Virus record (IMG/VR): IMGVR_UViG_3300032236_001858
Reading direction: 5' to 3' (one strand)
From: a virus
Lineage: Duplodnaviria > Heunggongvirae > Uroviricota > Caudoviricetes
DNA: 64,000 nucleotides
A program made the translations under genes and the position numbers. Numbering within the stretch: position 1 is the first letter of the stretch; every line of letters begins with the position of its first letter. This document shows positions 59,944 to 60,576 of this stretch, piece by piece. Below the pieces are notes generated by a model that saw only the letters and a list, made by a program, of their open reading frames with translations, was not told the DNA's origin and made no database searches.

Positions 59944-60576
59944 ATGGAAATAAAATTAGAAAGTACTTACAAAGGAACAAGGATTCTTTTTAAGGACAGC
60001 GCTAAAAATAAAAGAAAGTTACTAAATAGCATGATTGATATTTTAGAATCATATGGTTATCAGGAAATAATGATACCTATTATTCAAAAACAAGAAACAT
60101 TTCAGTCAAAAGTTGGTGATGAAAACAGAAATATGATGTTTAACTTCAAAGACAGAGGTGATAGAGATTTGTGTTTATCTCCAGAGTACACGGCAATTGT
60201 TCAACAATTATCAAGTGATAAAATGAAATATGATAAAGATGTAAAAATGTTTTATATCGGTGAATGTTTCAGAGGAGAAAATACACAATCTGGAAGATGG
60301 AGACAATTTACACAATTTGGAGTTGAAGTTATAAATCCAAGTAAAGATTATACTGATGAAATGGTTGAAATTGCCAGTAAACTAATTGAGTTAGTTACAA
60401 AAAATTATGAAGTAAATCTGGAAACTACAAGAGGACTTGACTACTACAAAGGTGGAAAAGGATTTGAAATTGCTTGTCCCGAATTAGGATCATCTAAGCA
60501 AATTTGTGGAGGTGGTTCATATGATGGTGGTATTGGATTTGCTGTTGGTGTAGATAGATTACTATTATGTAAATAA
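59944..60576 (+). CDS. mini class-II histidyl-tRNA-synthetase-like catalytic core (HisZ-like, no anticodon-binding domain)
   Basis: ESYGYQEIMIPII ... LCLSPEYTAIVQQ, motif 2 FYIGECFRGENTQSGRWRQFTQFGVEV, and motif 3 ICGGGSYDGGIGFAVGVDRLLL align with HisRS. The motif-3 Arg is replaced by Ser. 210 aa. Confidence 0.65.
   Translation: MEIKLESTYKGTRILFKDSAKNKRKLLNSMIDILESYGYQEIMIPIIQKQETFQSKVGDENRNMMFNFKDRGDRDLCLSPEYTAIVQQLSSDKMKYDKDVKMFYIGECFRGENTQSGRWRQFTQFGVEVINPSKDYTDEMVEIASKLIELVTKNYEVNLETTRGLDYYKGGKGFEIACPELGSSKQICGGGSYDGGIGFAVGVDRLLLCK

Follow-up and report, generated by a model that had tools for sequence, protein, structure and literature searches.

The Locus and Its Gene

The subject of this analysis is a small gene in a stretch of 64,000 nucleotides (nt) of viral DNA, IMG/VR record IMGVR_UViG_3300032236_001858 (Caudoviricetes), the whole of which is called the window below. 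The gene is an open reading frame (ORF) of 210 codons, running from ATG to TAA on the + strand (210 amino acids, aa, plus the stop). It encodes the class II catalytic core of a histidyl-tRNA synthetase (HisRS) without the insertion domain and without the anticodon-binding domain, and is referred to here as mini-HisRS. It lies within an array of tRNA genes. Along the + strand, the array begins with tRNAs for Phe, His, Phe, and Trp, continues with an HNH gene, four "Lys" tRNAs, and two tRNA-like elements, and then reaches mini-HisRS, which is followed by an interrupted tRNA, a terminator, a tRNA-Arg, and three tRNA-Ser genes. The tRNA-His of this array, with anticodon GUG, is located 1.55 kb upstream of mini-HisRS on the same strand.

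An initial annotation of the locus had described the ORF as a HisRS-like protein that could not read an anticodon, had placed it between two interrupted tRNA genes with His acceptor determinants, and had proposed three roles: a His-mischarging recoding device, a HisZ-like regulator, or a tRNA-binding decoy. The extent of the ORF is as described, and the sequences quoted for motif 2, FRGENTQSGRWRQF, and motif 3, GFAVGVDRLLL, are present, as is a HisA motif, TRGLDYY. The statement that the motif-3 arginine has become serine is wrong, since this arginine (R311 in Escherichia coli) is kept as R205 and the serine in question, S192, belongs to the HisB motif.

Assignment to the HisRS Family

Profile searches and a structure prediction, both proposed in the initial annotation as checks, place the protein in the HisRS/HisZ superfamily with HisRS ahead. 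In Pfam, the 210-aa protein matches tRNA-synt_His (PF13393) with E=2.7e-26 and 93 bits against a gathering score of 25, and tRNA-synt_2b, the general class II core, is matched as well. In NCBIfam, hisS (TIGR00442) ranks first with 158.2 bits and hisZ (TIGR00443) second with 106.1 bits. The hisS score is under the curated equivalog cut-off of 286.75 bits, which is expected because the protein has half the normal length; the hisZ score is under its own cut-off of 271.65 bits and below that of hisS. Across 38 diverse members of the family, the best E-value is 5.5e-48 for hisS versus 1.8e-30 for hisZ. The PylS_Cterm profile also matches the window protein, at 36 bits, and the best sequence matches in the PDB are bacterial HisRS. 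Given thousands of homologues and the selection data presented below, the match is far beyond chance.

The alignment with E. coli HisRS (1KMM) falls into two stretches, which join query residues 28-144 to E. coli 27-148 and query residues 144-208 to E. coli 240-314. Thus, the helical insertion domain of about 90 residues (E. coli ~149-239, between motif 2 and HisA) has no counterpart, and everything after motif 3 is missing: the protein stops 5 residues past the motif-3 arginine and has neither a linker nor a class IIa anticodon-binding domain. Several loops are also shortened, including the 11-residue one that HisRS has between HisB and motif 3. In Pfam, HGTP_anticodon (PF03129) finds no match in the 210-aa protein and nothing convincing elsewhere in the window. 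The loss of both domains, as initially annotated, is therefore borne out, and the missing anticodon-binding domain supports the idea that the anticodon cannot be read in the canonical way.

A split enzyme, whose anticodon-binding domain would be encoded separately, was also considered and rejected. A hidden Markov model (HMM) of the HisRS C-terminal domain, built from 71 full-length HisRS, finds in the window only a 70-aa ORF at 57186-57398, with 20 bits (E=9e-6 in a small search space). In Pfam, this ORF has weak PASTA and potato-inhibitor-I matches and no HGTP_anticodon match, and the 20-bit score probably reflects a generic beta-alpha-beta resemblance. A homologue of this ORF is found about 1 kb upstream of mini-HisRS at the related locus L007. 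A 90-aa ORF that is coupled to the gene in the closest relatives matches neither Pfam nor the C-terminal HMM and is absent from the window. A defence or anti-defence family was rejected as well: the PADLOC search gave a single marginal match of 14.6 bits, and PHROGs gave weak matches only, to families of unknown function.

Catalytic Residues

The class II motifs and the histidine-specific HisA and HisB motifs are all recognizable (Table 1). Conservation was counted in 77 family clusters at 70% identity; E. coli HisRS numbering is given with the prefix Ec. Within motif 2, R110, E112, Q115, R118, R120, Q124, and E128 of the window protein are equivalent to Ec R113, E115, Q118, R121, R123, Q127, and E131. 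Nearly every position that binds ATP or histidine is maintained in the family: in motif 2, Ec R113 is kept in 75 of the 77 clusters, E115 in 70, R121 in 70, F125 in 75, Q127 in 76, and E131 in 74; in HisA, HisB, and motif 3, R259 is kept in 70, Y264 in 72, Y288 in 73, and R311 in 75; and in the histidine pocket, E83 is kept in 75 and T85 in 73. The invariant proline of motif 1 (P45) is kept in 75/77. The HisB arginine position, by comparison, is variable (S16/E14/R10/A9/P8 among the 77). Overall, the residues that are catalytic or that contact histidine, the acceptor end, or G-1 are mostly 90-99% conserved.

Table 1. Features of the mini-HisRS gene and the surrounding array (aa, residue numbers in the 210-aa protein)
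Feature	Coordinates	Strand	Remarks
Terminator-like hairpin	58096..58128	+	Upstream of the tRNA array
Phage tRNA-His(GUG)	58316..58390	+	Encoded G-1 (58316) opposite C73; from ARAGORN, Rfam tRNA (55.6 bits), and sequence
Upstream interrupted tRNA-like gene	59772..59915	+	G-1:C73 eight-pair acceptor; normal D and T arms; ~56-nt hairpin replaces the anticodon arm
mini-HisRS gene	59944..60576	+	ATG-to-TAA ORF
Motif 1 region, aa 37-50	60052..60093	+	YGYQEIMIPIIQKQ; invariant Pro45; class II dimer-interface motif; from HisRS alignment
aa 70-84	60151..60195	+	DRGDRDLCLSPEYTA; D70-R71-G72 tripeptide and histidine-binding E81/T83 (Ec E83/T85)
Motif 2 and loop, aa 108-128	60265..60327	+	CFRGENTQSGRWRQFTQFGVE; from HisRS alignment
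HisA motif, aa 162-168	60427..60447	+	TRGLDYY; R163 = Ec R259, Y168 = Ec Y264
HisB motif, aa 189-194	60508..60525	+	GGGSYD; Arg of GGRYD (Ec R287) replaced by Ser (S192); Tyr (Ec Y288) kept as Y193
Motif 3, aa 196-208	60529..60567	+	GIGFAVGVDRLLL; ATP-binding R205 (Ec R311) present
Downstream interrupted tRNA-like gene	60586..60712	+	Acceptor GGGGAUG/CAUCCCC; A73; U at -1, no G-1
Terminator-like hairpin with U-tract	60893..60923	+	Downstream of mini-HisRS and the second interrupted tRNA

Predicted Structure

An AlphaFold2 model, built from 54 homologues of 44-89% identity, has a mean predicted local distance difference test score (pLDDT) of 88.5 and a predicted TM-score (pTM) of 0.87. Low pLDDT is confined to residues 51-60, the motif-2 loop, and the HisA loop, which are loops known to be mobile in HisRS. 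Where HisRS has its insertion domain, the helix at 137-148 of the model runs straight into the strand at 156-161. Compared with the PDB by Foldseek, the model matches HisRS best, with E. coli (2EL9/1KMM, query TM-score, TMq, 0.84-0.85), Thermus thermophilus, and A. baumannii HisRS at the top (overall 0.82-0.85), ahead of HisZ (0.79-0.80) and then of pyrrolysyl-tRNA synthetases (PylRS) that lack PylSn (0.67-0.71).

Other phage proteins of similar size, 185-222 aa, adopt a class II synthetase core fold in BFVD; these entries (A0A292GIB7, A0A141HRQ2, A0A6J5M2P2, A0A2I7SAH4, and K7QJG2 of Escherichia phage phAPEC8) give TMq 0.59-0.69 and 13-19% identity to the window protein. Minimal class II cores may thus be a wider phage theme.

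Family, Selection, and Distribution

A search of 5.8 billion proteins gave 1542 matches, the best 120 of which are all 210-235 aa and 80-89% identical to the window protein. Among representatives at 50% identity, about 40 clusters of 196-285 aa align with the whole query in a single stretch, down to 32% identity, and therefore share the same deletions; in this search, no full-length HisRS ranks better than E~1e-35, and those that appear align in two stretches. At E<=1e-10, 3957 proteins were returned by a profile search, and the 120 listed are 208-255 aa long. Members of the family, ~190-260 aa in length, reside chiefly in huge-phage contigs, frequently within tRNA arrays that also hold a tRNA-His with G-1:C73, further synthetases, and RNA ligases, and in phages whose GC content ranges from 29 to 67%; their identity to host HisRS is ~35-45%.

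The gene is under strong purifying selection. When the window gene is compared pairwise with twelve relatives, the ratio of nonsynonymous to synonymous substitution rates (dN/dS) ranges from 0.07 to 0.17, with dS at 0.85-2.1. In one homologue (P0122), an intein with a LAGLIDADG domain splits the histidine-binding loop precisely at the PEY/TAV junction, a site at which an intein is expected because the site is functionally constrained. HisA or motif-2 residues are lost in a minority of distant members (P0253, P0212, P0192, P0143), which may be inactive derivatives.

The window is related to the huge-phage genomes LR756502 (642 kb) and LR745206 (635 kb), at 86% protein identity. Another member is found in a cultured phage, Sinorhizobium phage Phosso (469 kb), as a 196-aa form annotated "histidyl-tRNA synthetase". 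Each of these three complete genomes has one HisRS-like gene, the mini form, and no other. Family members are also present in bacterial assemblies, namely a Kangiellaceae metagenome-assembled genome (MAG; 3-Mb contig), Pseudomonas fragi, P. cerasi, P. sp., and Chromobacterium vaccinii. A chromosomal, N-terminally shorter subfamily resembles the Phosso form (L088-L092 and L109, from Pseudomonas spp. and Chromobacterium vaccinii, with L091 from a Burkholderiales MAG), and several of these chromosomal copies have an open frame without a canonical start codon before the conserved region.

Database records label these proteins histidyl-tRNA synthetase (JGI, and GenBank for Phosso), apart from one MAG record that reads "ATP phosphoribosyltransferase regulatory subunit" (HisZ). 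In the literature, no paper was found that notes or tests a phage mini-HisRS with both domains deleted, in agreement with the initial annotation, which knew of no described phage system of this kind. HisRS descent itself is thus already recorded; what is new is the minimal architecture and, probably, recognition of the acceptor alone.

Residues That Contact the tRNA

In the complex of T. thermophilus HisRS with tRNAHis, G-1 is held by R7, R115, and R122 and by the 70'DRG72' loop of the second subunit (Tian 2015, PMC4357726). Q117, K118, and R120 hold C70-C72 and C74, A76 interacts with E114 and with the E64 main chain, and the C-terminal domain alone reads the anticodon (PMC4357726). The two reported mutants of insertion-domain contacts stay active, R197A at more than half of wild type and K209A at about wild type (PMC4357726). 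Earlier studies reviewed there found that HisRS depends only weakly on the anticodon and that it charges mini- and microhelices bearing the -1:73 pair (PMC4357726).

The window protein has equivalents of most of the acceptor-end contacts in K10, an exact D70-R71-G72, E112, Q115, R118, and R120; at T. thermophilus R115 (Ec R116) it has Asn, N113, and at E64 it has Met. Across the 77 clusters, the equivalent of Q117 is kept in 70, of R120 in 70, of R122 in 72, and of D70 in 67, with K or R at the R7 position in 59 and R or K at the R115 position in 58. With these contacts kept and the anticodon of little weight, the protein thus preserves most of what gives HisRS its specificity for tRNA-His, and the parts that have been lost are the less critical ones.

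The Flanking tRNAs and tRNA-Like Elements

The two terminator-like hairpins probably bracket one unit that contains the tRNAs, the HNH gene, and mini-HisRS; the segment 60776-60932, which includes the second hairpin, is conserved upstream of tRNA-Arg in relatives. Both flanking elements described in the initial annotation are present as tRNA-like structures with inserts of ~55-70 nt in the anticodon region, and both are missed by ARAGORN with default settings. Only the upstream one has the G-1:C73 pair. It ends 29 nt before mini-HisRS and folds stably (RNAfold -44 kcal/mol, z -2.55), without a recognisable 7-nt anticodon loop; ARAGORN reports it with the intron option only, calling it "Leu(taa)" and placing a 50-nt intron at a site that is not canonical. 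The downstream element folds no better than shuffled sequences (z -1.2), matches the tmRNA clan of Rfam at 31 bits, under the gathering score of 47, and is called "Glu(ttc)" by ARAGORN -i. Other Rfam matches near the gene (His_leader at 24.7 bits, L10_leader, and YrlA) are all far below their gathering scores.

By blastn of both flanks, both interrupted elements are absent from all 83 related loci, and a pattern scan near the gene in relatives for other interrupted tRNAs gave just 3 distinct, unrelated cases. Interrupted tRNAs as a feature of the family were therefore rejected. The functional coupling of the protein to these two RNAs, proposed initially, is not upheld either: besides their absence from the related loci and the single G-1:C73 pair, the closest relatives have an RNA-ligase operon instead.

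Several further features of the array deserve mention. Directly upstream of the G-1:C73 interrupted element, 59657-59766 is also tRNA-like and missed by ARAGORN, with an acceptor AGUCAAG/CUUGACU, a T arm, and a long variable region; its sole Rfam match is the weak YrlA one. Three of the "Lys" tRNAs (59383-59470, 59478-59562, and 59566-59649, with anticodons UUU, UUU, and CUU) measure 84-88 nt and carry an extended, type-II-like variable arm, which in bacteria is normally a feature of tRNAs for Leu, Ser, or Tyr. These three adjoin one normal 74-nt tRNA-Lys, an arrangement kept in related huge phages (L003 1854-2119, L006 1991-2266, and L168 28662-28931). Other phages with mini-HisRS have long-variable-arm tRNAs of 86-90 nt with a GUG anticodon and G-1:C73, sometimes beside a normal 74-nt tRNA-His (L021 4687-4775, L024 4026-4115, L026 3475-3564, L044 5814-5903, and L046 3675-3760). 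In loci L001-L083, "AT" precedes the mature 5' end in roughly half or more of the phage tRNA genes of most species, and an AT-G(-1) leader is found in 23/24 tRNA-His genes; the element at 59772 has the same "AT-G". The HNH endonuclease gene inside the array (58686-59228) encodes an N-terminal helix-turn-helix, and in related arrays, ORFs judged by eye to be GIY-YIG-like homing endonucleases interrupt the same region, which suggests that mobile endonucleases drive rearrangements around mini-HisRS.

Gene Context in Relatives

In the closest, LR-type relatives, the start of mini-HisRS overlaps the end of an RNA-ligase gene (PF09414), and the gene is followed by the coupled 90-aa ORF and then by a second RNA ligase. 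The two ligase genes, like the 90-aa ORF, are absent from the window, where a collagen-repeat protein (61804-63312, - strand) sits at the syntenic position of the ligase block. PF09414 ligases flank mini-HisRS at L002 (3346-4011 and 4893-5606) and likewise at L004 and L011; L006 has one only, and at L003 and L005 both ligases are downstream.

A tRNA-His with G-1:C73 lies upstream of the gene, in the same array order, at 2.6-2.9 kb in LR745206 and 5.5 kb in LR756502, and is only ~30-350 nt from the gene in the divergent lineages L001, L025, L044, L070, and L072. Of 65 non-redundant phage loci, 31 carry tRNAs in the 6 kb around the gene. At a distance of up to 1.5 kb, tRNA-His is the most frequent species (10/65 loci, followed by Trp with 8 and Arg with 7). 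The initial annotation had proposed a check for co-occurrence with G-1:C73 tRNAs; tRNA-His is indeed the top neighbour, but its excess is weak, as discussed below.

Clustering of the neighbours revealed no conserved partner gene across the 65 loci. No neighbour family occurs in more than 12 of the 83 loci, the largest, in 12, being a GIY-YIG-like protein (a homing endonuclease as judged by eye), and no carrier-protein-like gene was seen among the neighbour families. An adjacent conserved carrier or acceptor gene, by which an amino acid:carrier-protein ligase would be identified, was thus not found.

Neighbours in relatives include genes for mini-TrpRS, SerRS, a monomeric PheRS-like protein, LeuRS, Rnl-type ligases, and RtcB. 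The mini-TrpRS is a 240-aa TrpRS/TyrRS-like class I enzyme with HIGH and KMSKS motifs (L010 2164-2886, L044 6621-7352, and L058 5104-5823); it covers positions 7-230 of the 292 in PF00579, the C-terminal part being missing, adjoins mini-HisRS and a tRNA-Trp, and is absent from the window. At L010, a full-length SerRS (3795-5066) is found upstream of mini-HisRS, and directly downstream is a 366-aa single-chain PheRS-like protein (6645-7745) that combines a PF01409 core with FDX-ACB. This combination of core and anticodon-binding fold is the architecture of the monomeric mitochondrial PheRS.

A Proposed Minimal HisRS That Would Not Read the Anticodon

Given the conserved residues and the missing domains, it is postulated that mini-HisRS is a minimal HisRS that ignores the anticodon and charges tRNA-His by way of its acceptor stem, an explanation to which we would give an even chance. 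In this model, the protein would dimerise through motif 1 and would form histidyl-adenylate from histidine and ATP with the equivalents of Ec R113, E115, R121, R259, R311, E83, T85, Q127, E131, Y264, and Y288. Histidine would then be passed to A76 of tRNA-His, of which only the acceptor end would be recognised, that is, the 5'-phosphate and base of G-1, C73, and C74, by K10, Q115, R118, and R120 and by the D70-R71-G72 loop of the partner subunit. Since recognition would be limited to the acceptor end, the enzyme would be blind to the anticodon. Its likely substrate would be the phage's own tRNA-His(GUG) with its encoded G-1:C73 pair. The supply of histidyl-tRNA would thereby become partly independent of the host enzyme, and phage tRNAs with unusual anticodon loops or long variable arms could be tolerated. 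A genuine minimal HisRS for the phage tRNA-His(GUG) is the simplest role, and it was not among the three proposed initially.

The strongest circumstantial argument for genuine tRNA charging comes from phage Phosso, in which a tRNA-His with G-1, C73, and an encoded CCA is located 275 nt upstream of mini-HisRS. The host of Phosso belongs to the Hyphomicrobiales (= Rhizobiales), an order that includes members with a tRNA-His lacking G-1 and a divergent HisRS (PMC3064791). The C. crescentus HisRS, the sole enzyme of the divergent type that has been tested, failed to charge E. coli tRNA (PMC3064791). Should S. meliloti have the divergent type, as its order may suggest, the Phosso tRNA-His would need its own G-1-type enzyme, for which mini-HisRS would be the only candidate.

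A number of observations weigh against a charging enzyme. Glu64 is reported to be indispensable for aminoacylation, although it is only semiconserved, and none of the 77 clusters has Glu at this position (Q34/M18/L11). The window clade has Asn at the R115 (Ec R116) position and SPEYTA where HisRS has RPEGTA, and half of the acceptor clamp has been lost in the phage protein. Removal of the C-terminal domain from E. coli HisRS (leaving 1-320) cost ~2000-fold in activity, and HisRS urzymes of 119-145 aa keep activity with a 10^6-10^7-fold loss (PMC3060492); a form that also lacks the insertion domain may consequently be a poor charging enzyme unless the loss is compensated. Of the 65 non-redundant loci, 34, or about half, are without a tRNA in the surrounding 6 kb, and where a tRNA lies within 1.5 kb, tRNA-His is the nearest neighbour in 4/22 loci versus ~7% expected, a weak enrichment. 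About 10 relatives occur in bacterial genome assemblies, two on Mb-scale contigs, without a phage or tRNA context; their carriers presumably have a normal HisRS of their own, a hint that this subfamily, at least, may act outside translation. Finally, the host of the window phage (relatives reportedly infect Bacteroidetes) would already charge a G-1:C73 tRNA-His, so a second enzyme would bring no obvious benefit.

A bolder version of the charging model holds that the mini-HisRS family is a natural "proto-synthetase", the smallest functional aminoacyl-tRNA synthetase (aaRS) known (~190-215 aa), that it recognises G-1:C73 only, and that in this genome it also histidylates the upstream interrupted RNA, which would lead to codon reassignment or to a histidyl-RNA outside translation. 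This combination is considered very unlikely.

Alternative Explanations

The most serious alternative, although we think it unlikely, is that mini-HisRS is a paralogue that activates or binds histidine outside translation, supplying His-AMP to another acceptor (a protein, a small molecule, or a modified nucleic acid) or serving as a HisZ-like sensing subunit, and does not charge tRNA. Truncated aaRS paralogues of this type exist, among them HisZ, AsnA, amino acid:carrier-protein ligases, and YadB (PMC9437257), and the hisZ profile match, the record named after the HisZ subunit, the bacterial members outside a tRNA or phage context, the many phage loci without a nearby tRNA, and the family-wide loss of Glu64 would all be accommodated. 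However, hisS outranks hisZ for the window protein and for the 38 diverse members, the ATP-binding and catalytic residues are 90-99% conserved, whereas HisZ has no adenylation activity (PMC9437257), and the acceptor-end contacts (the equivalents of Q117, R122, R7, and DRG) are conserved as well. Furthermore, there is neither a conserved partner gene nor a carrier-protein-like neighbour, and a tblastn search with E. coli HisG, a query validated by a 96% match to a Salmonella-derived record, found nothing in the phage genomes LR756502, LR745206, and Phosso. A HisZ/HisG system was therefore rejected, and the HisZ-like regulator of the initial annotation is disfavoured.

It has also been considered that mini-HisRS forms a heterodimer with the full-length HisRS of the host through motif 1, either borrowing an anticodon-binding domain in trans or acting as a decoy or modulator that poisons or retunes the host enzyme. 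Motif 1 and its invariant proline are kept, tRNA contacts both HisRS subunits with the partner subunit completing the G-1 pocket (PMC4357726), and the isolated E. coli catalytic domain shows ~2000-fold lower activity (PMC3060492). Yet conservation of every catalytic residue at 90-99% would be superfluous in a pure decoy, the phages of this family infect widely differing hosts (GC 29-67%), no conserved heterodimer interface is obvious at an identity to host HisRS of only ~35-45%, and the HisRS of the Phosso host would be of the divergent, G-1-independent type if S. meliloti is in that group. We regard a heterodimer as improbable, and more so than a non-translational paralogue. The recoding device of the initial annotation, which would histidylate the upstream interrupted RNA or other non-His tRNAs and so place His at other codons or generate a non-translational histidyl-RNA, can draw on the fold of that RNA, which lies 29 nt from the gene and combines normal D and T arms with an acceptor of eight pairs that includes G-1:C73, on the findings that HisRS identity resides mainly in G-1:C73 and that charging extends to tRNAs that have received the determinants by transplantation or carry a changed anticodon (PMC4357726, PMC3064791), and on the other odd tRNAs of this phage clade, the long-arm "Lys" here and the long-arm "His" elsewhere. 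But the RNA has no recognisable 7-nt anticodon loop, the downstream element has no G-1:C73, and the scan of relatives for other interrupted tRNAs was nearly empty; since neither element is found in the 83 related loci, the gene family is maintained without these RNAs. Mischarging is accordingly given only a slight chance, and nothing specifically supports either the decoy or the mischarging idea. That the gene is merely a decaying remnant of a captured hisS might be argued from its half length, from the residues lost in some distant members (P0253, P0212, P0192, P0143), and from the bacterial copies without a clear start codon. With dN/dS ~0.1 at saturating dS, the same domain boundaries in thousands of sequences down to 32% identity, and a compact fold predicted with confidence, this is hardly credible, and the selection data effectively refute the status of a pseudogene.

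Implications

Mini-HisRS may be the smallest natural tRNA synthetase; if it is active, it would to our knowledge be the smallest natural aminoacyl-tRNA synthetase known. Activity would also give an equivalent in nature to the engineered constructs, HisRS catalytic domains and urzymes, that are used in arguments on class II evolution, and it would mean that selection can maintain an aaRS that reads the acceptor stem only, the "operational RNA code". Huge phages would then carry streamlined, anticodon-blind charging enzymes (mini-HisRS here, and mini-TrpRS and the monomeric PheRS-like protein in relatives) beside tRNA arrays and RNA-repair ligases, a set that would be relevant to escape from host defences that target tRNA. 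For synthetic biology, a 210-aa enzyme specific for G-1:C73 would be attractive as part of an orthogonal pair. Since the cultured phage Phosso carries a member of the family, the question is directly testable.

Comparison with Known Systems

Huge phages have been reported to encode up to 15 synthetases and 67 tRNAs per genome, and the synthetases were proposed to charge phage tRNA variants (Al-Shayeb et al. 2020, PMC7162821). Two huge-phage genomes of 635-642 kb, LR745206 and LR756502, are relatives of the window; in the main text of that paper, "histid" has 0 occurrences, and no mention of domain-deleted forms was found (PMC7162821).

With bacterial HisRS (E. coli 1KMM/2EL9, T. thermophilus 4RDX; class IIa), the phage protein shares the fold (TMq 0.84-0.85), motifs 1-3, HisA, and all of the ATP- and His-binding residues, as well as those residues in the motif-2 and DRG loops through which HisRS contacts G-1, C73, and C74. 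It differs in size, 210 aa versus ~420 aa, being without the insertion domain, the linker, and the HGTP domain, and in sequence, in that the HisB Arg is not conserved in the phage family, the Glu64 equivalent is Q/M/L, and the window clade has SPEYTA. The very small PylRS that lack PylSn (Methanomethylophilus alvus, ~275 aa) offer a second comparison, since they too are natural class II synthetases of minimal size and resemble the phage protein in fold (TMq 0.67-0.71) and profile (PylS_Cterm, 36 bits). Such a PylRS is essentially a catalytic core and does not read the anticodon. However, it belongs to another amino acid and tRNA system and has extra tRNA-binding elements, whereas the phage protein is ~65 aa smaller and clearly of HisRS descent.

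HisZ is likewise derived from HisRS and likewise without an anticodon-binding domain (106 bits, TMq 0.79-0.80), but its profile and solved chains are 314-400 aa versus the 210 aa of the phage protein. HisZ has no adenylation activity and works with HisG (PMC9437257), whereas in the phage family the catalytic residues (the motif-2 and motif-3 Arg, the HisA Arg, and E115) are conserved at 90-97%. The nearest functional parallels are laboratory constructs, the Ncat HisRS (E. coli residues 1-320), described as kinetically characterised in the work cited there (Augustine & Francklyn 1997, cited in PMC3060492), and the urzymes, which demonstrate that a HisRS without its anticodon-binding domain, and even without its insertion domain, still activates histidine. 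The phage form, which keeps HisA, HisB, and motif 3 and not the insertion domain, lies between Ncat and the urzymes in size. In contrast to these truncations, with their 2x10^3 to 10^7-fold losses, it is natural and selected.

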